A stretch of 38,258 nt of DNA, from IMG/VR virus record IMGVR_UViG_3300033512_000657, positions 1 through 38,258 of that record; one strand, written 5' to 3'. Source of the stretch: a virus (taxonomy: Duplodnaviria > Caudoviricetes). This document shows, piece after piece, positions 8,899-36,773 of this stretch. The translations under genes and the position numbers were made by a program. Under the pieces are notes generated by a model that was not told where the DNA came from, made no database searches, and saw only the letters and a list, made by a program, of their open reading frames with translations. Each line of letters begins with the position of its first letter. Within the stretch, counting starts at the first letter, position 1.

Positions 8899-11430
8899 TT
8901 AAATGATTGATTTTTTTAGTCTATTTATTATTTCCTCGTTTTTTTCTTTTCTCTTCCCTGTGAGGTTTGCATTGTTTGCTCTTCTCCATTGGATTTCCTT
9001 CTCTATTTGTTTTGAAGCGGGAGAGTCTTTCGTCAATACAGGGACTTTCAACAATTCTTTTGATGTGAGTGTATCCTTGACTGGAATAGATGATGGGATC
9101 TCCGTGAAGTCTGGCTTGAATTGTTCGTCTGCTCTTATGTATACCCACATCGAACGGCAACGGATATGTTGAGGTGGAGAGTAGTTTTTGTAATCAGGAG
9201 AGTCAAGCTTCACAACTTTCCCATCCAAAGACAAACACCTGTTCGATGTTCTTCAATCGATAATTGCAGAGTATTGTGCGGAATGTAGTTTTTCGGCGTT
9301 TACATAAGCAACCGACTTCCTTCAACTATTGAACGATTGGTTGACTCAAATAGAAACGACCATTCATGCGGCTTGATCTAGGTATGGCTTGACGACGTTC
9401 TTCACGGCAACAACAACCGATGCTGAGCTTGTGTTCTTCAATCATTCATTCTTTACAATTTGGCTCGCTATGATAGCCTTTGTTTCCGCTTCAACCTTGG
9501 AAACAATTCCCTCTGCAATATTTTCTGCTTGTATCTTTATCACATCTTTGAGATCTTGTTTGCTACTTGGTATCTGGAATCACAACTCACGGCTTGTCTC
9601 ATTCTTTCCGTAGTCAAACATTTTTTTGTATGCTTGCGTAACGATTAGAGATATATCCGTTTTGTATTTTGCTGTAAGTTCCGATAAAGCAACCATGTCG
9701 TTCTTTTCCACTGCAAGCTTCACTTGATCGAGAAGTTTTTGTGTCATATTATCCGCAATCTCCGAATACTTCTTCAACAACAACGCTTCTTCTTCGTCGA
9801 GGTTTTCCTTTATCGATTTCAAAGATACCCTTCTTTCTGCGAATGTAAGTGGTCTCCAAAACCCATCAACAACAGGATCGGAGAAATTCCTTGCTCAAAC
9901 ATCATCTCCCTCCATGAGTCATTCAACTTGGTGGTTTATGATCTTTTCGTGGTCAAAGTGTGACTCATCAGAAAAGTGGAGATTCCCGCATCAACACGAT
10001 GAGTGTTCTTTTTCTTCCTTATTATTTTCTATTTTCGAGTTGTCTTTTTTTTTTACACTTTCCTGCTCCTTCATTTTGTTTTGTGCATCCAAAACGGATT
10101 GTTTCTTTTCATTGTATTCCTCTTCGGAAATTTGTGGGAGATGCAAAAGCTCTCTGATGTGCTCCTCTGTCTCGTGGTTGGGTGTAAGTATTTGTCCAGA
10201 AACAAGAGATGCAATAGTTGTTGAAAGTTGTGTCGTGTCTACAACACCAACCTGTCAGAACTTTATCTTTGGGCATCTTCAAACAACACCAAAATTGATT
10301 GCTACAATCTTTGGGATTATGTATTTGTTGATAACTTCCATGTCCTTTTCCAAAAGTCATTTCACCGCCTCAAAAAAGAAAGCAGTTGATGTATTCGCCA
10401 TTCAATAGGATCACTTCTCTGATTTTCAGAGGTAGAGAAATTGTTGGAAGAAAATATCGTTGATGTTTTGTTGGTAGTGTTTTATAGCTTCCGTCAACTT
10501 ATTTGCGTTGTCTCAAATATTCGTAGTCATCCATTCGTATCAAACAAGAGGCGCTCCGTCATCTGAAAGATATTCGGTAACATATCCACTCTCCAAACTT
10601 CTCATATTCTCTGCAATGTTTTTGTACTCTTCGATTTGTGCATCCTCTGTCCCTTGTGGAACTTTTATTTTCAAAGGTGGAATAGCCATCCTTTCTTGAA
10701 GGACGGCGTGGTAGTTCTCAAATTTATCTTTGAAGAATCGATCTTTTGCGATCTTACGATAAAGAGATCGTCCTTCATAATTCACTCACTCGGAGTTGAT
10801 GTTGAACAAAATAAGTTTGTTTGATGGTATGTCGACCGTAGTCATTCCCTCGTTGAGATTTTCATCGTCAGTTTCCTCTTTTGCCTTTGGGTAGAACGTC
10901 AACTGCTGGACTCATGGTTCATCTTTTGAGGTTCTCCACTTGAAAACAGTTTCACTTGCAAGCCTTGTGAATTGTGGAAAAAATCACTCATCTTTTTTCT
11001 CGAAATACAACTCAAAAAGAGAGAACCCATCCCTCACATATAAATTTATGTCTTCCAAAAATCATTTGAATCATTTATCTAGGTTTTCAAACAAACATTT
11101 CTCAACGAACTTCGCGACATCTTCATCTTCGGGAGTTGGTTCTTTCCCATCTTCGGAAAAAGGATCAACAAAAAAGTTTGTCGATGTCTTCATTAGTGTG
11201 ATTGCATTTCTCATTTGGAAAACCTGTCAATCATTATCCATTCTCATGAAAATCTGTTGACGTTCGTATTTGCTTTTGAATCTCTCGGAATACTCCTCGA
11301 ACATGAAACCGTTGCTTTGTTTTGTTCAATAAGATGACTCACGAACGAATAGAAGCTTGGTCTTTGGTAGCTGTTCCTTGTTTATACTAAAAGACTTTAC
11401 TGCGTTTTTTATAGCTTCTGTGATTTTCAT
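8899..11430 (-). CDS. portal protein (DUF935/Mu gp29-like) fused to minor head protein (Mu gpF/SPP1 gp7-like)
   Basis: 843 aa with no TAA/TAG; portal motifs (DGFSLFE, NYEG.SLYR, IPKIVAINFG) then AIIDGRTSNRCLSLDG..PPQHIRCRS. Confidence 0.85.
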
Positions 11431-11433
11431 GTG

Positions 11434-13023
11434 CTAGAAGTCTTTGGTAAAAAATTGTTTTTTTGGAGAATATTTTTCAATGAGTTCTTGTGTCCTCTTT
11501 GAGGCACTATTTTGATTTGGTATAGTATTTTTTGTGGGCGATTCAATAGATTTTGAAACGTCTTTTTCTGTCAATTGCAAAAGTATCTTGTGCTTCAACA
11601 AAAGCTGTGTGAAAGAATCGACACGATCGTCGTGTTCCACATTGGGAAACTTTATCATTTCCTTGATGAAGCCTTGATCTATATCAGGAGAAAAAAGCAC
11701 GTGTCATCATTCGATGTATGGCTGGCATTGCCTCAACCTCATCACCTTTGTCATTTTCAATGGATCGTATAAAAAAATCATCCATCAAAACTTCCTTATG
11801 AGATTTTTTCTCAACGTCATCCCTCAAGCTTTGTTTTCTATAATCAAAGCCTCAACTCAAAACTTTTTGTAAAGAAATTCTAAACGTTCCTCGATTCTTA
11901 TGGGATCTTTTTGCCTTCACTTCAATTGTTCAGAGTGCCTCACATTGAATTTCCTTTTCTCTGGCATCCATGTCGCTATTGTTACACCGATTGGATCACT
12001 TCAATCCTTTTCTGATTCTCAGGAATCGATGGAGATATAGGTTTTGTGTCAGTAAGTGATTGGGACATATTGCTCGTATCTGATCCATTGCTCCTCGATA
12101 ATAGGAACATCATTTCTCAAAGGGACAAGGAGATAATTTGCACCAAACCAATCTCTTCATTGTTCGTCGCGTAAAGCATCGATAGAAACAACGTGGCTTT
12201 CGGGAGGTAAGGTTTTATTTATTTTGTCAGCATCATCACTTTTCCAAACGAATCTTTCTGGTCGGTGGATCTTTCCGTCATCGATCAATTTCGTGTATAC
12301 GATTTTCCACTTCTTATTGTTTTTGTAATCCTCCGCAAGTCTAGGCAACACTCAATCTTCGTTGATAGTGTTTCCCAAAATTATCTTTTGTCCTGTTGCT
12401 CAACCAAAGATTGCACCCTTTACTTTGTTGTATGTTTTTTTGATAGTGATGGGATTCGCTGTGTTTTCGTCGTCATCGATGTCATCAAGTACATCAAGAT
12501 CAGGACGGAGAGATTGGTCACGCATAAAAACATTTAATCACCTTGTGGATTTTTTCACCGAGTTGGCTTTGACCATTACTCCGTTTGTCGTAGTGAATCA
12601 TGAAGTTCTTTTTTGTTCTTTCTGCTTGAATACACCATGCGAAGACTCTCAATAATACAACCTTCAATAATCGTTGACAAACATACTCGTTTCTGATCCA
12701 ATCATCATATTTGAAATTGATGTGATGTTGTCCTCCGCTTTCGATACGTCGTACGATGTCCATCTCACAAATTTTTTCTTCCTTGTTGCTACCCACTTAC
12801 AAATCATTTTTCTTATGATCGATGTTTTTGCGCAGCCTCTGTATCAAAACCATATCAAATTTCCTCCATTTTCTATCCACTCCAATATCTCTTCGTAATC
12901 TTGTGGAGTTCAAAAGGAATCACAAAAGTAAAAATCACACCAAAGCATTGGCTCCTCGGGGAAACAAATAGACCTTAGTGTCTTGTCCTGTGAAATCTCA
13001 TCGAGCAAATCTCCATCTATCAT
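11434..13023 (-). CDS. terL: terminase large subunit
   Basis: 529 aa; GYRGCAKT ATPase motif, RPDLDVLDDIDD Walker B, FPNVEHDDRVDSFTQ nuclease motif. Confidence 0.93.
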
Positions 13024-13532
13024 TTGGACTTCAGTTTTTTAAATTTATCGAGAACCTCTTTTTGTTTATCATTCAACTCGACGTGGATGTTTGGAGTCAA
13101 GTCCTCTATGTATCTTGTTGGCTCTTTTTTCTCTACCTTCACGATCTCCCATAAGTCCTTTATGCGTTTGTCAAAAAAAAATCATGTCACTTCCTTTCAC
13201 TCATCAGTCTTCACAGTTAATTCCTCCACCGCAATGCTTGTCGCTTTCATTATCTTTTCGTGCATTTCTGAAAGCAATTCTATACTTGGTTTGTATATTT
13301 TATCGGCAACTTTCGATTCCAAAGATTTCAATGCTTTCTCCATAGCTTTCTTTTTAAATTCTTGTTTTTTATTACATCGTCACTTTGTGCTTTCTGCTCT
13401 ACTCCCGGTTTGTCCCTTTGCATCCGGCTTCACAATTCCCTTTTTTTTAAGGAACTTGAATACTGATTCCTCTTCGTCTGTAAGATACTCTAGGAAAAGT
13501 TTTTCTCGTGGATATTTTTTTACTTGAGGCAT
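13017..13532 (-). CDS. terS: terminase small subunit
   Basis: 171 aa overlapping terL start; KYP[W]EKLFLEY, TKG[W], VKVEKEPT. Confidence 0.65.
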
Positions 13533-13708
13533 CTTTCTTTTTGTACATGAGATAAAACGAAAGCAATTATGTCATCCATATGAATGATAACTTTTTGTTT
13601 CTTGAAATACATCTCAATGATCTTTCACTCTTTGAGATGTTTGTTTGCTCTTTTCCAGTTGATTCACTTTTTCCTGGAATAGTCCAATATTGAGTTGTAA
13701 TAAAACAT
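13520..13708 (-). CDS. small basic hypothetical protein (possible DNA-binding)
   Basis: 62 aa with TGA=Gly, first gene of packaging operon. Confidence 0.5.
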
Positions 13709-13798
13709 ATCGTTTTTGGTAATAAATGGAATAATTTACGTCGCAAATTAGGAATATACTATTGCTTCCATATTGCAACAAAAAAAGTCTTCAAAAAT

Positions 13799-13826
13799 TT
13801 GACAAATAAACTTTTTGGGTTATAAT
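13799..13826 (+). promoter_or_regulatory. consensus sigma70 promoter
   Basis: TTGACA-16nt-TATAAT upstream of two plus-strand genes. Confidence 0.75.
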
Positions 13827-13875
13827 TACATTGTCGATGGGTATCCTGTCGCATCTTTATTCTCTATATCACACC

Positions 13876-14163
13876 ATGCAAAACAAACAAAAAATCGTTG
13901 CACTGGTTGCTGGGATAGCAACACTGCAAGAAAAAAGGGAAAGGCTTTTAGAAAAAAGGAGATTACTTTGGAAAGAGTATCTCTGTGCCAATGTTATAAA
14001 AGGTACCAAAATTCTGCATATTTGGGATAAAACCTGCGGGAAAGTTCGACAAATAGATTCAGAAATTCTTTTACTCTCTACCCAACTCTATCATGAAAAA
14101 CAAAATCTATCTCATAACTACGAAAATTATTACTATCCTTTGAGTTGGGCTTGTGTTGCTTAG
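13876..14163 (+). CDS. hypothetical protein
   Basis: ATG 50 nt downstream of consensus promoter; 95 aa. Confidence 0.55.
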   Translation: MQNKQKIVALVAGIATLQEKRERLLEKRRLLWKEYLCANVIKGTKILHIWDKTCGKVRQIDSEILLLSTQLYHEKQNLSHNYENYYYPLSWACVA

Positions 14164-14641
14164 CCCAAAACTTGCTATCCTTATCGCACAACGGAATAGG
14201 TTCTTCTTTGTGAAGTTCGTAATATTGATATTCCTTGTGATGTTTGTGGATCAATACATGGCATTCATTATGGAGAACCTCCCAAGAATCAAAAAGCTTT
14301 TTGGTAGAATATCTTTTGAGAGATCCATCGATGGGATCCCATGCACAAGGTTGCTATCGTTTTTGATGGAATATGATGGGATGCCAACAAATGAATTCAT
14401 AGCAAAATTTGGCTTATCCAAGGAGTCAACAAAAATCCTAGGAGATAATTTGGAGCGCGTTGGTATATTGGAGCGTGGAGCAAAAAATGCAAGGGTTTTG
14501 AGCAGGGTATATGATCCAGAAAAGATATTGGGTATATTACAAAATTCATCCGACTCCTCTACTCTATCAATACCACTGGTGAATATATCTCCTACATCGT
14601 ACGTATTCGCCAATAGTGGCTTGGTAAGCCAAGAAAACTAG
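14093..14641 (+). CDS. membrane protein with C-terminal winged-helix-like domain
   Basis: 182 aa with one TGA; two hydrophobic segments then FIAKFGLSKESTKILGDNLERVGILERGAKNARVL. Confidence 0.65.
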
Positions 14642-14674
14642 AAAGAAAACAGACGGAAAACAAAAATAGAACTA

Positions 14675-14709
14675 ACAGAAAACACCCCCGAAAGGAGGTG
14701 TTTTTCTGT
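14675..14709. terminator. bidirectional intrinsic terminator
   Basis: AAAACACC-CCCGAAAGGA-GGTGTTTTT between convergent genes. Confidence 0.75.
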
Positions 14710-14776
14710 CTTTTATCTTTTTCTACCATGATGAAGTGGTGCTTTTTGTATACTCATTTTTGTACACGATGCAAGT

Positions 14777-15013
14777 CTATTGATTCCGAAAGTTATGACA
14801 TTTTTTGCAGGAATACGACTTCCTTCACTTTCATAGGCTTTGGATAATTCAAACGATTATGGCCAAGGCTATGAATCCAAAACCAACTACAATTATTGGG
14901 AAGAAAACTATTCATATCAGGACCATCACACATCATATCGCCGCAACCATAATCATTCAACTTACCGTTTCATACGACCCACATTTTGGGCATTGTTTAT
15001 TTGTTGGTGTCAT
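14777..15013 (-). CDS. small membrane protein with split Zn-ribbon
   Basis: CPKCG...hydrophobic hairpin...CKKCHNF[CGG=W]NQ; 78 aa. Confidence 0.7.
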
Positions 15014-15028
15014 TCTATAGGAAAAAAA

Positions 15029-15550
15029 TTAAATATCATCCTCATACTTTTGGTCGAAGCACTCTTCGCAATATGGTCATTGGTGGATTGGGATCATTCT
15101 TAAACATTCTTTGCACGGCTTTGTTTCTTTTGTATTCATTCAATTTGTTTTGTAATGTTTCTTGAATCTCTTCTTAAACACTACCTTGAATTTATCAACT
15201 CACTCTTGTGATACGAAATATTGTTTCTTTCCAAGTTTGGATTTCTTTTCTACTATCCCCTCAATCAATCACTCTTTCTTAAGTTGGGAGAACCTTCCTG
15301 TTGAATATCAGAACAACTCACAAAATCATTCTACTGTATATAGCTTGCCATGTCACTCTGGGTTGTAGGGCGCCGCAATTTCTTTTGAGGGTTCGATCTT
15401 GGTTTCTTCGACTTTTGGACTCGTAGCAACGCCGAGAGATTCGATGCGGGTTATTTTATAGGAAACAACGTCCCCGTATACAGCAACCTTTCACTTCTCG
15501 GAATCATCTTCCAAGTATCAAAGCAGGATGTTTTTTATTTCGAACTTCAT
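15029..15550 (-). CDS. putative DNA-binding protein (HTH-like plus CxxC pairs)
   Basis: 173 aa; LYTVEGFCELFGYSTGRFSQLKKEGLI; CKEC..CEEC. Confidence 0.55.
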
Positions 15551-15574
15551 TTGATTTGATTTGATTTGGTAAAT

Positions 15575-15655
15575 AGAAGACCTTGCACAAGATCGCTAAA
15601 AGCAAAAGCGAAGCGGATATCATCTTGCTTTTCGTCAATTTGTGCTAGTGTCTTC
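15575..15655. repeat. structured repeat copy 1 (attC-like hairpin)
   Basis: AGAAGACCTTGCACAAGA...TTGTGCTAGTGTCT; ends identical to copy 2, interior different but self-complementary. Confidence 0.8.
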
Positions 15656-15674
15656 GTTCACGTTGGGAGTGGCA

Positions 15675-15702
15675 TTGCATAAAACTAATGGATTAGTATA
15701 TT
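15675..15702 (+). promoter_or_regulatory. putative cassette promoter
   Basis: TTGCAT-16nt-TATATT upstream of ATG 15743. Confidence 0.5.
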
Positions 15703-15742
15703 TAAATCGCTACAATCTTTACATACTAATCCTTTTTGTCCT

Positions 15743-16027
15743 ATGGAATACACATCTTATATTTTTTCTATACTCGCATCTATTGCTACAGTTCTTTCCT
15801 TATTTGCCACGATATATACAATACAGACAAGGAAACTCATATTGAAAAACAACTTAAACATAACGAAACAATTTGGGGTATCGAACACTTCATATCAAGC
15901 TAGTGGTAATATTATAAATAAATACTGAATACAAATAGAGGAGTTGGATAAAAGACTTTCAGATATTGAAAGAGATATACTCAAGAAAGCAGATGAAAAT
16001 TCCTTCGTTTCTTCAATAATGTTCTAA
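15743..16027 (+). CDS. small membrane-anchored coiled-coil protein (cassette gene)
   Basis: 94 aa with one TGA read-through; N-terminal TM segment; opposite strand to neighbours. Confidence 0.7.
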
Positions 16028-16069
16028 TAAACACTTCGTGAAGAGCCAAGTCTAGCACTGTGTTTCAGG

Positions 16070-16141
16070 AGAAGACCTTGCACAAGAATAGTTGCGTAAG
16101 GTTATTTCCAACTAACGCAATATATCTTGTGCTAGTGTCTA
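16070..16141. repeat. structured repeat copy 2 (attC-like hairpin)
   Basis: AGAAGACCTTGCACAAGA...TCTTGTGCTAGTGTCT; overlaps TAG stop of the Dps-like gene. Confidence 0.8.
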
Positions 16142-16573
16142 TATCCCGATCTCTTTATTGTTCTTGAAGATAAACACTCAAAGTTCTTTTCTCCATCCAA
16201 TAATTTCGTTGTTCAAAATTGTGTCGCTGTCTTTGCTTCACAATTCTCGTGCTTTCATATACATTTCCAAATAATCCATCGATTGTTTCAATACTTCTTT
16301 CTGCAAAGAAACATTCTTTTCTACTTCGTTGTCTTGTGTGATCTTGCTTTGGATTTGGATTTCAGCGTATTGTGTTGGGAAAGATATTCACAAAAGTTCT
16401 TGTCTTTCCAAAAGAAAGTCCAATTTGTCGTCAGCCCAATCATATATTTCGCCCAAGAAAGGGTGGTAATACATCGATCATTGTCAAGAACATTTGACGT
16501 GCATATTGTGGACGTTGTCCCTGAAAACGAAAAGCGTTGAAAACAACTGGTTGTAAATTTCTTTGATATCCAT
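16139..16573 (-). CDS. ferritin/Dps-like protein
   Basis: 144 aa; HNMHVKCSGQGSMYYHPFLGEIYD..DFLLERQELLG matches Dps helix A/B pattern. Confidence 0.7.
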
Positions 16574-16581
16574 GGGTATTT

Positions 16582-16905
16582 TTACAAGAAATAAATATCT
16601 TTTTGTGGATTCCTCTCTAGATTTTTTAAGAAATCATATGTGATTCTTTCTCACCTTTTGAGTTTCTCTTCTATTATGAATTTGTTTCACGCGACAAGAC
16701 GATCGACTTCGTGGTGTTCGTCCTCGTTTGCGACAAGCACAATGTTGTTTGGATCAAGTTTATACTTTTTGTACGTTCATTTCGGAAGAACGTGAGCAAA
16801 ACATCGAGCCTTTGGTTCGTTTATTCGCACTTGCGATATTTCCGATTGGTGGATACGAGTTCTTCGTATATACCAAAACAAATCCTTTTGATTCATAAAC
16901 TGCAT
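16582..16905 (-). CDS. HNH-like endonuclease
   Basis: 107 aa; YI[W]RTR..SEIS..CFAHVLPKG.Y..YKLDPNNIVLV..EHHEVD. Confidence 0.65.
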
Positions 16906-16915
16906 ATCTTTGTGG

Positions 16916-17236
16916 TTATTTTGTAAGATCATCTTGTTTATTATCAAAATAATCCTTCAATATTCAATAGATATATTTTTTCAGTTCTATGCTTTGACTT
17001 GTGAGTTCTGGAAGATTAGTATCCCACCTTTTACAAATCGCCACGCAAACTGATTCCCGCTTCTCTGATCACTTCTCGAACACCTGTGCCATTCAATGCA
17101 AAACATCCGAAAGTATTACATGGAATATTCTTATTTTTTCTTTGTCCTCTTTTTCGTCGAAGTATTTGTAGCTCCTTGTGAGCCTCAAAAAAAACTCCTT
17201 ATTCATTTCCTCCTCTTTTACTTTGCTTTCACTCAT
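16916..17236 (-). CDS. hypothetical protein
   Basis: 106 aa open frame with TGA=Gly. Confidence 0.55.
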
Positions 17237-17338
17237 GGCGTATGTTTGAAAAATAAAATCATTACCCACCAGAATCTTGCTGTCTCCACAACAAGCATGT
17301 TTTCTAGTGGAAAGTTTTTAACGAAATGGTCTGAATAC

Positions 17339-17378
17339 GGTGGGAGTTGCGGAATCGAACCGCTTCGCCAAAGCTCCC
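17339..17378 (-). ncRNA. tRNA-like minihelix (acceptor stem + T-arm only)
   Basis: GGGAGCT-TTGGCGAA-GCGG-TTCGATT-CCGC-AACTCCC-ACC; no D or anticodon arm. Confidence 0.4.
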
Positions 17379-17384
17379 GTATAT

Positions 17385-17412
17385 AAGCCCTCTTAGTAAA
17401 GAGAGCTTTTTT
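17385..17412. terminator. putative terminator hairpin
   Basis: GCCCTCTT-AGTA-AAGAGAGC followed by T-run on +; also folds on -. Confidence 0.5.
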
Positions 17413-17413
17413 G

Positions 17414-17593
17414 TTAATACTGTTTTAAATACTTTACTTCTACGCGATCAACCTTGATATCACCAGTCGATGAGTCTTCATCGTCTTGTATGATTGTGAT
17501 CTTTAACTCTGGATCAACTCTTTGATAAGCGGCAATAACGGCTCTAGATAAAGATGTCATCCACAATTCTCCATTGTACCAAACTAGATTCAT
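17414..17593 (-). CDS. hypothetical protein
   Basis: 59 aa ORF tiling early operon. Confidence 0.5.
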   Translation of the reverse strand: MNLVWYNGELWMTSLSRAVIAAYQRVDPELKITIIQDDEDSSTGDIKVDRVEVKYLKQY

Positions 17594-17723
17594 TTCTTTT
17601 TCTCCTCATCAATTTTAGTTAGATACTTCAACAACCTTTTAAAGTCGTCAGATAATTCTTTACACTCGCAAAACATCTTCTTACAGACTTTGCATTTCTT
17701 TTTTAACTTTAGTTTCATAACTT

Positions 17724-17945
17724 TTATTTTTGTTTACGTTTAACAAAGTACAGGTTCCTGAATATCGTGTTATCCATAAGTTCAGAAACTTGCTTTTCTT
17801 CTTTTACATTCGTCTCACAATTGATTACTTCAATTGTTTCTCTACCATTGATTTGCATCCACTCGTAGAATAGTGTCGACCTGAGAACTGTTAAGTGTTT
17901 ATACAATTCTCCTGTCGTTTTGTCATTTAAATAAACTGTTGTCAT
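17724..17945 (-). CDS. hypothetical protein
   Basis: 73 aa ORF in track, co-oriented. Confidence 0.55.
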   Translation of the reverse strand: MTTVYLNDKTTGELYKHLTVLRSTLFYEWMQINGRETIEVINCETNVKEEKQVSELMDNTIFRNLYFVKRKQK

Positions 17946-17978
17946 ACTATTTATATTTAAGTGTTTTATTTAGCTTTT

Positions 17979-18164
17979 TTAAATCTTCTCATGTCTCTTC
18001 ATAGACTCCACAATCATATCAAAGAACAACTGTAACTTCGTTAGTTGTCTCTGGTCGGCTACCTTCTCTGATTCTTTCAACACATTCGTCTCTATCTCCA
18101 AATCATTCTTTTTATCTTCGATAGTATTGTAGTCTTGTTTGTCTGCTCGTTCTTTGTTGTTCAT
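17979..18164 (-). CDS. hypothetical protein
   Basis: 61 aa ORF in track, co-oriented. Confidence 0.55.
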   Translation of the reverse strand: MNNKERADKQDYNTIEDKKNDLEIETNVLKESEKVADQRQLTKLQLFFDMIVESMKRHEKI

Positions 18165-18184
18165 TGCAGATTGTAAAAATAAAA

Positions 18185-18391
18185 TTAGTCACATTTACAT
18201 TTTTTAGTTTTACATTTACACTTTCGATAGATATCTCGTGTTTCTTTATATAACGATTTTCATCTCTCATTGAGTAAATCAGCATCTATAAAACTCTCTA
18301 AAATATCATTGAACTTACGTCAATCCCATTCCCACTCTTTCATGATTAGCAGAACATTATGTTCAGTACATATACTCTTATCCGTATTCAT
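18185..18391 (-). CDS. hypothetical protein
   Basis: 68 aa with TGA=Gly. Confidence 0.5.
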
Positions 18392-18411
18392 GTAAGTTAT
18401 TGTATGTAAAA

Positions 18412-18726
18412 TTATCGCTTGACTATATGAATATGCCTTTGATTCTTCCTGCTTTTATCATCCTCCGCATTCTCTATCTTAGTATGCTCTTTATAGCTTC
18501 TCATAAGAATAGAAAGCTCCATATCTTTTCACTTGCTTGGGCTTGGATGTTTCTCCCATAGAATCAGGTGCTCTGTGGTGTTAGAATATGGTCGTGGATT
18601 CTTTGCTGTTATTCGGTGCATATGATTCTCTACAATATCTCACCATTTTTTGAACCACTCCAAGTCTAATCGTTCTGGAGCATTTGGTCTTATTGAATAG
18701 TCTGGGACATAGTTGCGGAAGTTCAT
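18412..18726 (-). CDS. HIT-like protein
   Basis: 104 aa; AKNP[W]PYSNTTEHLILW ... NQRHIHIV. Confidence 0.45.
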
Positions 18727-19049
18727 TACTCGCAAGGTGACAAACTAAAGTCGATATACTCTTCTCACTTTTTCACAATGTGTTTTTTAGCGTGTATTTC
18801 GTAAATCCTATCGTCATCAAACGAATACTTTTTTTGTAGGATGTCCAAGAATGGCTTCAATACATTGTCCAAATCCTGTTGCACACTGCTTAGTCAAACA
18901 GATATTTCTAGTTTCAACTTTCATTCAGGTATTGCCATCTTTTTAAGCAAAACCATCACGATCTTTTCGTATCTTTGATACAATGTCGTTTTGTATCTTT
19001 TCCCCTGCCAAGCAGTATTCACAGACATTGGCTTGATGTTTATTTTCAT
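18726..19049 (-). CDS. rusA: RusA-family Holliday junction resolvase
   Basis: KPMSVNTAWQGKR..DLDNVLKPFLDILQKKYSFDDDRIYEI. Confidence 0.87.
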
Positions 19050-29402: not shown

Positions 29403-31274
29403 CTAAACTTCAACTCATTGTTTGATTACTATGTCGGCTATTTTTAAACCAGGGAAAGTAGAATTGTTAACAATAAAGAATGATGACGTTGTAATTGTAT
29501 TATCCGTATAAGTTCAAACAGATGTATAATTTGTATATATTCATCATTTCACATAAACCGAGAATAATCATTGATTCGTCCTAGTTATTTTAATATCATA
29601 ATAATTTGTATTTGCTAATGGGATTAAAAAAAGTTGTGTTTGTACTCAAGATACAATTTTATAAAGTCAAAGTCATAACGTGCCATGATACAAACCATAT
29701 CAATTGTTTGATGACAAAATTGTTCTATCATTCATAAAATATATACCGCATTCTGAATTATTAGAAGCATGTAGTGCAAATTCCCAAGTTCAATACGCCT
29801 GTTTGCTTTGATATGATATCGTTCAGACAACTGTGTTTTGTAAATACTTTTGTCATTTCTTTATTATAGAGTTTCATGCTGTTTCGGTTACTAATTTATA
29901 ACTTCAAGTTCAAGCTATCCACCCAGTAGGAACAACAGTATTTCAATCAGCTTTATCGTATGCAAATGTTTCTTTAAATACTATTTGTCTTGCCCATTTG
30001 TTATAATCGCTATTAAGTTTTGAGTCTGCAAGTATTTGATTGTATAGTTTTACACTTTGGATATTTCAATCAAAGTCAATAGCTAAATCTGCTCTGTTTC
30101 ATATGTACAAACTTCAATCAGAATCTGTCACAAAACTCCAAGCTCAAACTATGGTTGATGTCAGTGTTTGTGTAACTCAATTTATTTTAATAATAGGTAC
30201 ATTTCAAGAAGAACTTGAGTTATATGTAAGCTGTACATAGACTTTTTTTCATAGAGTTATAGAGTTAATAGGTGTTTCCCATTGGCTGTAATTTGGGTTG
30301 CCTCTATATATTATAAATTTTAAAGAGTTGCCAGCTTCCATTCAGAAAAACCATCAAGACACTGTTGTTGTTTTTTTAGCGACCACACATCATGCACTAG
30401 CTCCTCAAAGTCAAACAGGTGTAAATTCCGCCTGTATTGTTCATCACGATTGGAACATATCATTTATTCCAGTTCATGGAGCAACGCTATAGAAAACATT
30501 GGCTCAGTCTTTGAAATTTACACCCTCGATTGTTGGCGAAACAACTCAAGAGCTTTTAGTCATATTTTTACTATTCCCACTAATATCCACGAGAGTACTC
30601 CCGTTTGGTTTCATATTCCAAGCTCATACAAGTCAAGGCTCTGTAAGTGTTGTAGGTTTTGGATAAAAGATGTTTGTTTTCTTTTCTAGGAGTGGTTGGA
30701 GTTGGAGAAATCTTTTGTATTCGTTTGAAATACTGCTATTGCTTATTATGTTATCGTGTGCAACTATACTTGCACAATATCAATAAAATGGGTAATTGAA
30801 ATTTGACCTCTTAAAAAGTTTATTTATATCAATTGGGTTATTTGTTGTTGGTATATTTCATGTTCATATTAACACTCAGTCTACAAAAAAATCACATGAT
30901 TGTCAATTCCTTCTTACTGCAATAAATTGCCATTTTCATATTTTCAAACTATATGGTATTGATGCAAAATTAGCTCAGTCATTAGTATATATCCTTGTAG
31001 ATGAAAATCATAAAGCATAACTTCATGTAGAAGTTCATCATGTGAGAAAAGAATATGTAGATATTTTATATATTTTAATATATGCAATAAAAGAAAAAAC
31101 TGTTCATAATGTTACAGTATTTGATAATGTGACAAGTGGATCTGTAGAAAATGGAGTTTGTATTGCCAATCATTTATTTGTTCTAGAAAAAACACAATTA
31201 CTGTTAGTTATAACAGAGTTGTTTACTTTGTCTACCATTCAATATGTTGGGTTGAACTCAAAAACTTTGCTCAT
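29403..31274 (-). CDS. tandem LamG/concanavalin-like domain virion protein
   Basis: 623 aa (ends and junction frames checked); EPGLVGAWNMKPNGSTLVDISGN domain start. Confidence 0.75.
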
Positions 31275-31283
31275 AGATATATT

Positions 31284-31736
31284 TTAGATAAAAAAGGGTT
31301 TTTGACTTGTATAGAGTTGAGTATGTTCTGCTAGTGCCAATTCTCTATTATATAGTCTTTCCATAGATAATTGCATACTTCAATATGTTGTATTATTTAT
31401 TCATATTGTCATTGCATTGAATGCGACATCCGTTGTACTTATTATCGTAACAAATTGCCATTTATTCGCTACAAGCGTATTAGTATCGACTCAATTTATA
31501 TAAGCATTATCAAAGTCTGTATATGTCAGCGTTCAAGAATTTATATGAATAAGATTTGCATTGGCACTTCATTCTAATATTTTTACCGTTGTTGATTTTG
31601 GGTATATCCAAAAACATATTGATTTTACTGTGTAGGTTCAAGATACTACTAGTTTACTTGCAGTGCCGTTGTAATCCTCAACATAAAATGGTCATTTTCT
31701 TTTTAAAGTTACTGCTGTATTAGTGATATCAACCAT
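31284..31736 (-). CDS. LamG domain protein (C-terminal part of split gene)
   Basis: 150 aa; DYNGTASKL, SICFWIYP, NKWQFV, RLYNRELALAEHTQLY. Confidence 0.75.
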
Positions 31737-32394
31737 ATGTTTTTTTATGTTCTAAATAGTGACAACTTCTACATAATGTTATTCAGTTTTTAACATCTCG
31801 TAGTCTCTTAAATTCAATAAGATATTCTTGCGATTTTCAAATTAGATTATTTTCCACTATTATATCTTTTATTCTTTTCTTATGATGTGCCTCTATATAT
31901 CATCAACATCAACATTTTGTACATTTTTGTAAATCTCTATTAAAAACCTTTTCCCTTCGTTCTCTATATTTATATATTCATCTTATTTTATTATATGTTT
32001 TTGTTATTCATCATTTCCGATTATAACACTTTTCTCAACTTAAATTTATAGAATATCATTTTGATCTACACTTCATACTACAATAATAATTGTCTCATCT
32101 TTTATAGTCCGTTCTATTTCTGTAAATATCTTTTCAACATATAGAACATTGGCATTCTATATCTCATCATTTCCATTGTCAATTACGAGTTCATTTTGTG
32201 CTACAATCATTACAATATTTATATGTTTTCTTGGATAACTCTTTTCAGCAGTCAATACAATATGATTTTGGTTTTCTCCTATAATCACTCATACAATCTT
32301 GTGAACAAAAGTTCGTTTTTCATTCTAAACATTTTTTATTTATATATTCATTTCAACATTGCTTGCAAATATACACCTTTTCTGATTCTCTCAT
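31720..32394 (-). CDS. HNH homing endonuclease with Zn-finger repeats
   Basis: 224 aa; FCSQDC, N[W]KGG, YRE[W]REKVFNRD..CTKC..EAHH..L[W]DVKNGITLCRSCH. Confidence 0.9.
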
Positions 32395-32423
32395 ATTATA
32401 TAGTAGGATATAAAATCCTATAT

Positions 32424-32451
32424 ATTATATATGTTTATTTATGGGTTTCAA
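32424..32451 (-). promoter_or_regulatory. promoter of HNH gene
   Basis: TTGAAA-16nt-TATAAT, followed by TAGGAT/ATCCTA hairpin before ATG. Confidence 0.6.
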
Positions 32452-33128
32452 GTTATTATTCAACTTCTACTATCAATATCAAATACAAGTCAGTTTCTTA
32501 TGTCTTTGTAGGTAGAGTTGTTATATAGATTGGCTATTTCCTGGTCAGTAAATGTCTTTGGAAAAAACTCTACAATTTCAAAGATTCAGGTATTAGCTAT
32601 GTAAGATCAAAGCCCATTATAAGCATTACCTATCCTTGCATTTTTACTTGATATCACAGGGCAAGAAGTCAAAATAGTTCAGGTAAAGCCAAGTGTCTGC
32701 TTTACTCAGTTTATGTAAAGAATTGCTTTTGTTGCGTTTGTCGCTTGTGAACCGTCATAAACAAAATACATATCATATGCTCACAATCACAAAGCTATAG
32801 ATCAATATCAAGCTCATGTTTGAAAATAACACCTATTATCATTATACATTCACAAAAACACTTGTGTTGCCGAGTTAGTGACTCATTGTGAAACTGAAAA
32901 GGCTCTTGATGATGTCGTTAGAGTTCACTTTATTCTTACCGTAAATTTAGTCTTTCAAGAAAAGTCATACCCACTATTAACATAATCTCACACAACATTA
33001 TTTATAGTCATCGCTCAATTAGAAAAAGTAGGAGTTCCAACAACTGTTCCTTGCTTTCTTGTATCCTGTTCTGAATTGAAAGTGTATCTTTCGACAGGCT
33101 TTCATTGACTATAAAGTGATTCCTTCAT
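32439..33128 (-). CDS. LamG domain protein (N-terminal part of split gene)
   Basis: 229 aa; FVYDGSQ..ILYINGV..TDQEIANLY, ending at start of another module (NGLVFDIDSRSGII). Confidence 0.75.
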
Positions 33129-33483
33129 TGTTTGTAAATTGTGAAACAAAATCCTCCCAAGAGGTGTTTTCTTCGTATGTTAAAACATAGTCGATGTAAT
33201 CGTTTACAAATACTTCTACGTCAATCAAATCACTTGAAAGCATTTCTATCAGTTCTTGTTTTGACTGTGGCTTTGTTTCACTATTCATTGCGGTATCACC
33301 TAGTGTTTCAAGCCTTTTAACTTCCTCCATTACTTGAACAAAGTATTGGAATGGGTATTTACTAGTCTTAGAGAAAGCCTCCGATTCGTTTCATCGTTGT
33401 TTTAGGAACTCATAAACCTCTTGTGCTTGTTCTTGTGTTATTGGTGGAATTGGTTCTGATGGTTTTATTTTATTGAAAAGCAT
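33109..33483 (-). CDS. hypothetical protein (tail-fibre region)
   Basis: 124 aa with TGA=Gly. Confidence 0.6.
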
Positions 33484-33500
33484 AGTGTTTATTTTAGAAA

Positions 33501-35183
33501 TTAAATATATTCCCTTACTCAAATAGTTCAAACATAAGACTCATTTCAACCATTGTTATTGTATACACATAACCATATTTCATCTCTTACGCTTGCAAGG
33601 CTTTTTCACAATCTCAATGCATTTTGTAAATCAGAACTTGAAGCGTCTACATCTGCAGAAAAGAATCATGAGGCAATAACTTCTCAATACGCTGTTACTG
33701 GAAGATTATCCGTAGCTTTTTGTAATACTGAGTTTGTAACGTCTGTAAATGTTGAAGCTCCTGTATATGTAGGGTTAAATAACAATAATCGATGTCAGTT
33801 TCAAGATGTGGTAGCTAATATTGAAACGTCTGTAATATCAGTGGCAAATTCAAAGCTATCTTCTTTTAATCTAATTCAAAGTATTGTTTCAGTAGCTCCA
33901 CTAGCTACTGCTTGTGCTGTTTGTTTGTATATACTTCTATACATACCTTTGGGGTTAAATCACCCTTCACTAATAACAGAACTACATATTTGTTTCAAGC
34001 TTCATGCTCACGCTGTGCTTGTTATTGCATAAGAAATAGGCAAGTTTGCTGTTCTCATATATACGTCTGTAAAACTAGCCGTGCTTGCGTGCCTGAATTG
34101 ATGTGCAACAAGAACTTCTCCATTTGGAGAAACGAAACCACATCTTACTGCTCAAACTCATAACCATTCCAAATCAAAGAAAAGGATATTTGCGTATGCT
34201 ACATTTATTGTTATTCAGCTTTTCCCTGTGCCGTCTAATTTATCAACATTCCAACTTGATTGTGCGACTGTTTCTGTAACTACTCAATTATTATAAATAC
34301 AAAATGATAAAGTTCCTGCATTATTTACAAAACAAACCCCATTTCTAGGAGTGTTGTTTATCGTTGCCAATCAAACATTATCATAATCAAGCAATCCTGC
34401 TCTTTTTATTTGTCATGCTTCGGTATTGAATAATCAAGTCATCAAAACCATATGCGATTTTCAAGGTTGGTATTTGAATCTTTGTTTTGTTTGTCTTACT
34501 ACATAATCACCTGCAGTTGCTGTTGAAAGTGTATATTTACTTGTTGGATTGTCATATAATCAGCTTCAAGTTCAATTAGTCAATGTACTCCAAAATAAAG
34601 TATCTGAAAATTGAGAAGTAAGAGAGTTGTCGAACAATGTATAAGGCTCTGATACTCTTATTCTTCAAAATGCATCTTTCTGCTCTTCCAAAGAAACTGA
34701 TAGATTTCAGTTTATGTTTGTTTTAATATCACGAAATACTCAATTAGGGTCTTCTCAAGTAAGAACTGATTTCATGAGCTCTGCATCATCGTCTCCCTCA
34801 ATAGTATCTTTTATCCTATGTGAACTAGGTTTTACATATGTTGTTTTGAATTGTGTTTGTAATCTGAAATATGTTTGAGGACTCGCACCATTGGTATATA
34901 CGATTCTAAACCACTTGAATACTGGTTGAAATGTGTAAGTCTCACCGTGAGTTCAATGTACTGTATAGACATCGGTAACATCTCGGTTTGTTCAATCAGG
35001 AGAAAATTGTACTGATAGTCAATCAGTTGCACTGTTTACGTCAGTCCTTACTGAAACTACTATGGTTCAAGTATCCACTATATTTTCCGCAGTACCTGTA
35101 AAAACAGCACCACCTGCTAAAGTCGCTACCGTGCTGTTTACCTTTGACACTCTTCCGTCAAATGATGATTGGAGTTCTTTCAT
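33501..35183 (-). CDS. virion structural/tail-associated protein
   Basis: 560 aa; NSTVATLAGGAVFTG, QFSPDGTN[W]D, DAFGRIRVSEP, RQTKQRFKYQPGKS, QSSWNVDKLDGTG. Confidence 0.7.
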
Positions 35184-35204
35184 TGTTTGTTGTGAAAAAT
35201 AAAA

Positions 35205-36773
35205 CTAATATGTCAAAGTGTATAACAGGTTATCTATTTGACCCGTTCAGTCTGCATCGTCTCTAGCTTGTACTTGGATATATGGTGTTCAAGTTACATC
35301 AAAAGTAATCTTAAACAATTGATCGCTATCACTAGCTATTAAGTAATCATTAAGATTTATTGTTGTTTGTCATCATGCGGGACTTCATAGGAATATTTCT
35401 CTATACTCCTCAGCTCCTGCACTTGTGTGTTTATGGAGTATTCTAATTTGCACACCTGTTGAAGTATTTATGTCTATAGTGAATCGTAGAGTCAAATACT
35501 TATATCAAGCACAAGGTATTTCAAACCCAACATCCGCAAAAGTGTTTGTAAGTTCGTAAGCTGTAGAAGTAAGAGGTGTTACTTCTTGGTAGTAACTAGA
35601 ATCTGGATTTTGAGAAACAACTTTTTTTACATCCAAACTTGGGTCATTTTCCTTCAAAACACTATTAATTCAAACCTCATAAACATCTCAAGAAGCGAAC
35701 GCCGTTCCTGTATGTCAGGAAATAGTGACGACATTCGTTGCTGTATCGACTCTCAAAGTGCAATTTATTCCCGCCCTCCAAATTTTTGTGTTTCATGATG
35801 TAGGAACAACCTTGATGTATACAAGTTGTGAGCTATCAACAAACGAGAAAGGAAGAGCAGAAAGTGTGATGGTCGTTGGACTTGTGTATGTTGCGGTGAA
35901 ATCCGATGGGCTTTTGTAGTCAACAGCAGAAACCATAAGTCAAACAACCGAGTTCATTAGAGAAAGCGTTGTTTCTGTTGCGAAATCTTTTGCGTTCAAC
36001 GTTGTGAACTTCCCATCGATGCTCGATAGGGAAGAATTTCACGTATCCTGTTTTGCAGACGTAGCGAAATCTTTTCAAGCAATCGTCGCAAGGTTTCATC
36101 ACGATTCTTGAGCATAATTAGAAATATTTCAGCTTTTTATGTTGATATCCAAAGCCCCCGTTGTACTTGTTATCGCATTTCCTGTCCCGTCGAAAAGATA
36201 TGATTTAACTGATGTGGTGAGCTGGGTAACAATATCTTTCAACCTTCAAAGCAATGTATTTGATGTTGGTGATGCTTGAACTTCTCAAACCTTTGTATCA
36301 ATATTTCAAAGACTAGTATTTCAAGTGTCTTGCTTCGCCTCGGTTGAAGGTGCTGAAATTATTTTATCGGTTCATGTCTTTATTCCACTCAAAGCAGTAT
36401 CAAGGTTGTCGGTTTTGGCTTTTATTGCCGCAAGAGTCGTCTGTGTTGCGAAATCTTTTCATGCTATCGTTGCAAGATTCCCACCTGTCTCTTTCGCTAC
36501 ATTCACAAGAGTATCAGGAAGATCCATAATTATCATAAGATCGTCCGTATTTGTCATCGATGAAGTGTCAAAATCCAATGTGAAAACATAACCAACAAGA
36601 GTTGCTCAAAATCCTGTCTTGTTCGGTTGGTACATGATCGTGTTTGTGTTTACGTTCACGATGGCCAAGAGCCATTCCAACTTGATCGTTTCTGAAATTC
36701 AAGAAATAGTCACCGTTTTTGCGGTTTTATCGAAAGCATAGGATCACACATTTACCCCCATGAGTTGTTTCAT
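35205..36773 (-). CDS. tail fibre-like protein with internal repeats
   Basis: 522 aa; YAFDKTAKTVTI..LDFDTSSMTNTDDL; repeats GGNLATIAGKDFAT. Confidence 0.7.

Follow-up and report, generated by a model that had tools for sequence, protein, structure and literature searches.

Cassette sites and hairpin-bounded mobile units

The closest described counterparts of the sites reported here are the attC sites of integrons, such as attC aadA7 and the VCR of Vibrio cholerae. An attC site carries a conserved AAC in R'' and a conserved GTT in R', and its pairing runs over 9–11 consecutive bases (PMC2727003). It forms an imperfect hairpin of 57–141 nt with a variable terminal structure, and on its bottom strand extra bases lie opposite the crossover triplet (PMC5027507). 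The central spacer is unpaired, with 5–6 nt per arm, and two extrahelical bases are placed about 6 bp apart (PMC5027507, PMC3053210). How new cassettes arise is stated as unknown (PMC4889954). Integrase-free cassette sites are known in phages as CALINs, which, like the locus below, have at least two sites and are likely served by a host enzyme; unlike the sites below, they were identified through canonical attC models and are recombined by IntI1, and the main text of that report mentions neither CPR nor Patescibacteria (PMC9892861). Phage cassettes with canonical sites are already known. The literature search on integrons and attC sites in CPR bacteria and Gracilibacteria, with most subscription journals and the supplements outside its scope, listed no account of a system like the one reported here.

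Single-stranded hairpins are the recognition sites at IS200/IS605 ends and in REP/REPIN elements, where non-autonomous units are moved in trans. Excision of IS200/IS605 takes out both end hairpins. The pdif modules of Acinetobacter, recombined by XerC/D, are small, often encode toxin-antitoxin pairs and lie between host-recombined sites. Each pdif site is a 28-bp double-stranded sequence with a fixed 6-bp centre.

The locus described here lies in a linear virus contig of 38,258 bases, which is about 91% complete and is analysed as a whole (the window). Two hairpins, named sites A and B, bound a 495-bp one-gene unit, and we consider, with a probability of about 0.7, that they are single-stranded recombination sites cut in one arm by a predicted host tyrosine recombinase. 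Hairpin size (60–74 nt) and a variable terminal structure agree with attC, as does the placement of extra bases on the 3' arm and of the crossover in the 5' arm. A stop codon in the first box and toxin-antitoxin cargo are further likenesses. Upstream of the array, where an integron would have attI and Pc, the other hairpin lies directly against a resident gene. In contrast to attC, the triplet is GAC/GTC instead of AAC/GTT in all four sites of the family, and the central spacer measures 3 by 4–5 nt and is partly paired, with the first extra base directly after the triplet. The arms are also invariant in sequence, the sites fall into two positional subtypes, and no IntI was found. The locus is not filed as an integron because its triplet and central spacer fail the attC definition. 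It resembles pdif in having small gene modules between presumed host-recombined sites.

The phage and its likely host

Genes of the window are open solely under translation table 25, in which TGA is read as glycine. The window is a tailed phage, and a profile search identified terminase, portal, capsid and amidase genes among its genes. The portal protein (843 aa, positions 8899–11430) includes a Mu F-like head morphogenesis domain as a fusion. Gracilibacteria and Absconditabacteria use code 25 (PMC10746230). Because the window reads table 25, its host is likely a member of one of these groups of ultra-small CPR bacteria. INPHARED phages included nothing close to the window, and relatives sought through Dps, terminase and tail alignments gave 0, 1 and 1 loci, respectively. 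A public run search listed no RNA dataset as carrying the window sequence.

A solitary 182-aa gene on the + strand (14093–14641) has an N-terminal hydrophobic stretch and belongs to no family. It faces a minus-strand operon, and a two-way terminator lies between them at 14679–14704.

Two hairpin sites in the window

The features of the locus are collected in Table 1.

Table 1. Features at the hairpin-bounded unit; positions are those of the window.
Feature	Position	Strand	Description
173-aa ORF	15029..15550	-	helix-turn-helix-like and Cys-pair motifs by eye; adjoins site A
Shared left arm of site A, crossover interval	15575..15592	+	18 nt; twin at 16070-16087
Site A	15579..15652	+	74 nt, GAC...GTC; subtype 1; goes along with the cassette
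Cassette	15579..16073		495 bp; site A plus cargo, up to GAC of site B
Possible cassette promoter	15675..15702	+	TTGCAT-16-TATATT; overlaps the second hairpin; putative, aligned with a similar G001 motif
Second hairpin	15690..15732	+	conserved arms, variable loop, A-C mismatch; directly before cargo start
Cargo gene	15743..16027	+	94-aa orphan, code 25; runs against the phage operon
Site B	16074..16139	+	66 nt, GAC...GTC; subtype 2; remains behind; overlaps Dps stop codon
Dps/ferritin-like gene	16139..16573	-	resident phage gene; its TAG stop gives the first base of site B

The preliminary description of this DNA had reported two direct repeats with common ends, and these were confirmed as the 18-nt left arm and a 14-nt right arm (15640–15653 and 16127–16140). 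Exactly two perfect copies of each arm occur in the window, and looser matches are at chance level. Of 200 shuffled versions of the window, one contained an 18-mer repeated within 2 kb. Both sites fold as DNA on both strands (z −3.3 to −6.1; −3.3 for site A and −6.1 for site B), none of 200 shuffles equalled them, and the bulge and mismatch first described were recovered in both. They also fold well as RNA. The statement that both interiors are self-complementary held for site B, whose interior alone folds better than shuffles (z −3.24), and failed for site A (z −0.64; 50 of 200 shuffles as good). As for the conserved ends, the GAC...GTC cores of the 74- and 66-nt elements stand, while the outer A is not conserved. 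From the GAC core of site A to that of site B the distance is 495 bases.

Rfam gave no match at the sites and two chance-level matches elsewhere in 13500–18000, and a terminator scan made no call at site A or site B. The + strand of site A shows the geometry of an attC bottom strand. An extra T lies on the 3' arm of the + strand, and the first site of the second phage (G001, below) has a further extra base. The + strand is probably the recombining strand because these extra bases lie opposite the crossover triplet, as in attC bottom strands.

The cassette and its neighbours

An inverted membrane-protein gene had been placed between the sites, and it is present as a 94-aa ORF that runs opposite to its neighbours. 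It has a single hydrophobic N-terminal segment, a predicted membrane anchor, and contains one in-frame TGA. The protein belongs to no Pfam, PADLOC or PHROGs family (best PHROGs E 0.028), and homolog searches returned itself alone plus two weak matches in long proteins. The proposal that the unit has its own promoter was not borne out by the promoter scan, which lists none upstream of the ORF start and gives 16 sites in the region against 11.1 ± 3.3 expected. A TTGYAT-16-TATAWW motif was noted by eye in the cassettes of both phages, without support from the consensus scan, and it provides the possible promoter in Table 1.

The second hairpin occurs once in the window and once in G001 (L016 7421–7468), each time inside the cassette, and is absent from the site-free relative G002. 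In both cassettes it stands just ahead of the inverted membrane gene, and the three phages contain no other copy. The RNA folds score z −2.3 and −4.9. The distance from the membrane gene stop to the right site is 45–46 nt in both cassettes (window 16028–16073; L016 7956–8000), and TAAACAC follows the stop in both.

The Dps-like protein matches phrog_3636 (E 6e-12), and its Pfam Ferritin match (E 0.0025) is below cut-off. Its stop codon had been said to fall inside one site, and indeed the G of TAG on the minus strand is the first base of site B. The Dps proteins of the window and G002 share 54% identity, equal length and the same upstream neighbours. The G002 gene also stops in TAG, with no hairpin and a 28-nt spacer after it. 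The distance from site A to the next start in the window is likewise 28 nt. The comparison fits site B being a cargo-less hairpin that may have dropped into an ordinary intergenic junction. Dps as cassette cargo was considered and rejected by the synteny with G002.

The gene beyond site A had been placed about 25 nt away, and the start of the 173-aa ORF is 28 nt from GAC and 24 nt from the shared arm. This ORF has no match at this place in G002. Homolog searches found none except itself, with a weak PADLOC match to mad1 (E 0.017). A TTTGA microsatellite (15549–15568) overlaps its start. A contig from the metagenome run X1 has one extra unit, which alters the spacing upstream of the start codon.

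The site family and a second phage

Search patterns anchored on the outer A had no match in the viral, GTDB genome or JGI metagenome collections; this base is not conserved. A relaxed pattern without it led to one viral record, G001 (1 locus), which is a complete code-25 phage with terminal repeats. G001 has exactly two sites, which are separated by 1262 bp and lie where the lysis genes give way to the replication genes. In its cargo, HicA (Pfam E 8.8e-11) forms a hicAB-like pair with a small gene that matches DUF1902 at E 8e-4, below cut-off, and a further gene encodes a 158-aa protein with a membrane anchor. Every cargo gene in both phages carries an in-frame TGA, and the sites of the two phages lie at different loci with different cargo. 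To the left of G001 site 1 (L016 6140–6740) there are about 600 bases without a long ORF, rich in short hairpins.

All four sites of the window and G001 fold (60–74 nt, z −3.2 to −6.1). Their interiors differ, while the same 12-nt left arm and the same 11 stem pairs recur in 4/4 sites. The stems give no covariation because the conserved pairs never vary. One invariant bulge sits beside the triplet. The interior measures 35–49 nt from arm to arm, and it folds alone in three of the four sites. Twelve comparisons of interior likeness were made. The left-site interiors of the two phages are alike (0/500 shuffles) and the right-site interiors weakly alike (17/500), whereas partner sites within one phage are not alike (404/500 and 469/500). 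Left and right sites are two positional subtypes across phages.

A covariance model, which had been recommended as a check, was built from the four sites of two phages and revealed no additional site in the window, G001 or G002. It was also run on 66 of 76 loci, the remainder being G001 duplicates or G002. The best other match of the model in G002, at 15.9 bits, lies inside a gene and does not fold. A loose-pattern set of 14 viral loci was dropped entirely as chance, the closest (L009/L010) lying inside a standard-code tail gene. Two GTDB genome loci were both inside standard-code genes and were judged chance, as were 18 JGI metagenome loci, none of which had the full fold in a code-25 context. 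A later viral scan gave 32 loci, two from G001 and 30 standard-code chance matches. Pattern scans of GTDB genomes and JGI metagenomes thus yielded neither a true site nor a host array. A hypervariable repeat described in Gracilibacteria is unrelated, as it is a coding tripeptide repeat (PMC6851277).

Natural variants and position of the crossover

Public metagenome run X1 contains a tenth of the sampled window words. At 80% likeness, 11 of its contigs were placed on 13000–19000 and six on 15380–16330. One 151-nt contig is an empty allele that joins 15574 to 16070 and skips exactly 495 bases, so that site A and the cargo are gone and site B is kept whole. It runs 71 nt without a difference on one side, extending to 16140 only, and its left flank has variants of its own, namely a 5-nt insertion and one substitution. 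At the joint, 18 letters fit either side. A second 151-nt contig represents a re-joined site, in which 15579–15687 is exact and follows 42 foreign letters. The foreign flank stops at 15578, just before the G of GAC, and the shared core starts at 15579. Each junction is a single contig at a depth of 3.5–3.9 from one run and might stem from a single molecule. The X1 contigs include no circle junction. The foreign flank contains TGTGTTT, and it may end another cassette because this motif resembles the window cassette end.

The stem pairing of attC is complete in the circular cassette. With a left-arm crossover, an excised circle would bring the flank preceding the right site together with the flank that follows the left site. 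In G001, 6 bp are paired beyond GAC/GTC in the excised-circle arrangement only, against 1 bp in both resident sites and in the empty form. The chance of such pairing is about 4e-4 per arrangement, with four arrangements looked at. The circle form has 9 consecutive pairs, within the 9–11 of attC, and only its flanks read AAC/GTT one triplet outside the core. The window circle gains 3 bp, the same as site A in place, and G001 alone discriminates. No complementarity of the outer cassette end to the flank of site B or of G001 site 2 stands out.

The empty joint and the foreign flank place the crossover in the left arm, with GAC as the boundary of the family. At the resolution of the arm, it is confined to the left arm starting GACCTTGCACAA on the + strand. 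The empty contig, the foreign joint and the G001 circle stem all place the crossover in one arm. Crossover in the R' arm and one site left after excision are attC features also seen here, in one contig each.

The preliminary description had read the locus as hairpin-based cassette capture. The copies in G001 with differing cargo, the site-free G002 and the empty and re-joined X1 alleles support this reading, and both further copies and presence/absence variation, whose lack it had named as refutation, were found. Because the same hairpins flank other genes and the unit is absent or re-joined in natural variants, the unit likely moves like an integron cassette. The observation is real, and mobility of the unit has support that is good but thin (two phages, one contig per junction).

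Predicted recombinase and proposed mechanism

PF00589 matched none of the three phage records (G000, G001 and G002) but all 14 of the controls. Scans of the 39 window ORFs, which cover the ~91% of the genome present, and of 34 of the 49 G001 ORFs of at least 80 aa, where the other 15 are the structural block and three minor ORFs, gave no recombinase, transposase or HUH family. As had been anticipated for an enzyme acting in trans, none was found in either site-bearing phage, as far as tested. Since likeness between the two phages is limited to tail genes and a distant terminase, they have no phage enzyme in common. IntI1 recombination drops 150-fold when both partners carry GTC (PMC2811028), which argues for an enzyme other than IntI1. 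The putative enzyme is most likely a host-encoded, Xer-like, non-IntI1 tyrosine recombinase.

In the proposed mechanism, the + strand would fold out into a hairpin while the phage replicates or enters. Site A would recombine with site B, setting free a circle that consists of site A and the cargo, and site B would stay behind. The circle would re-enter at another GAC-core site in a phage or host, with the junction resolved by replication. Because the cargo uses code 25, a Gracilibacteria or Absconditabacterales host is the likely source and destination of the cassettes. This explanation leaves the entry of site B into the stop codon and the two subtypes unaccounted for.

A more tentative idea, which we regard as possible and rather doubtful, is a two-part, integrase-free dock. 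A cargo-less hairpin of subtype 2 would land at GTC cores, for instance in the stop codon of a resident gene, and a host non-IntI tyrosine recombinase would plug cassette hairpins of subtype 1 into it. If this were true, site B on the Dps stop would be a snapshot of how an ordinary gene acquires a hairpin, cassette creation would have been caught at its first step, and CPR phages would be carriers as well as sources of cassettes. A site on the stop codon of a resident gene, together with a relative that has the gene without the site, offers a concrete case for the study of cassette creation. The recombination-site reading would show integron-style gene shuffling by a site family outside the standard attC rules, in code-25 phages. 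The natural variants already map the crossover arm, and the four sites of 60–74 nt are ready substrates for an enzyme search and for enzyme assays.

Alternative explanations

The sites could form a CALIN of a true but divergent integron, on which a host IntI with an extra domain acts. The alike layout, the one-arm crossover and the toxin-antitoxin cargo agree with this, integrase-free cassette sites are known in phages (PMC9892861), and IntI1 accepts a change in one partner (PMC2811028). In the G001 circle, AAC and GTT appear in the flanks at a distance of one triplet, which points the same way, as does the fit of the G001 site 2 top-strand flank to GTTRRRY. The window sites, however, have no AAC/GTT outside the core, and we consider a divergent integron unlikely. 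It is quite unlikely that the hairpins are RNA processing sites or terminators spread by ordinary recombination, with the empty contig a product of slippage or a library chimera. They do fold well as RNA, lie between genes and in one case touch a stop codon, and the junctions are single low-depth contigs in which a chimera across the 18-nt repeat is possible. Their orientation is against the main phage transcription in the window and along it in G001, and the sites drew neither a terminator call nor an Rfam match. Such elements also do not predict pairing in the circle only or a foreign flank that ends exactly at GAC.

The hairpins might also terminate a non-autonomous element for which an HUH enzyme (IS200/IS605, REP-type or IS91-type) provides the mobility. 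This would account for two imperfect hairpins in direct order, for left and right ends that differ, as the positional subtypes across phages suggest, and for insertion at unrelated loci. The empty contig, in contrast, retains one whole hairpin, site B, at the donor, the junctions fall at the stem base, and no such enzyme is among the scanned phage proteins; this explanation is very unlikely. A serine or ordinary tyrosine recombinase that acts on double-stranded att sites, in which the arms are binding sites and folding is not needed, agrees with arms that are invariant in sequence. Sites of the dif/pdif or serine att kind have a fixed spacer and a central crossover, whereas here the arm-to-arm distance varies, most interiors fold alone and the crossover maps to the outer arm, which makes this reading highly improbable. 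The reading as single-stranded recombination sites cut in one arm is preferred.

Relationships among the three phages

G001 and the window have only tail genes (33–87% identity) and a distant terminase in common. The common tail block spans 29403–36773 in the window and 14386–20000 in L071, and head and replication genes are unrelated or distant. To judge from this comparison, tail-module exchange between the two lineages is likely. G002, the closer relative, has head and replication genes in common with the window, together with Dps and its two upstream genes, and pattern and covariance-model searches found no site anywhere in it. With two positives and one negative, there is a hint that the sites track tail genes, and hence possibly the host, rather than phage lineage.

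Around the G002 Dps gene (L015 329–7208), genes resembling a glycosyltransferase, a UDP-GlcNAc epimerase and a methyltransferase were noted by eye, and a cold-shock gene follows at L015 7554–7769. G001 has a low-complexity Ala-Met/Ala-Leu repeat frame (L072 13843–14169), which probably shadows a short repeat gene, rich in Gly, that is read in a different frame.
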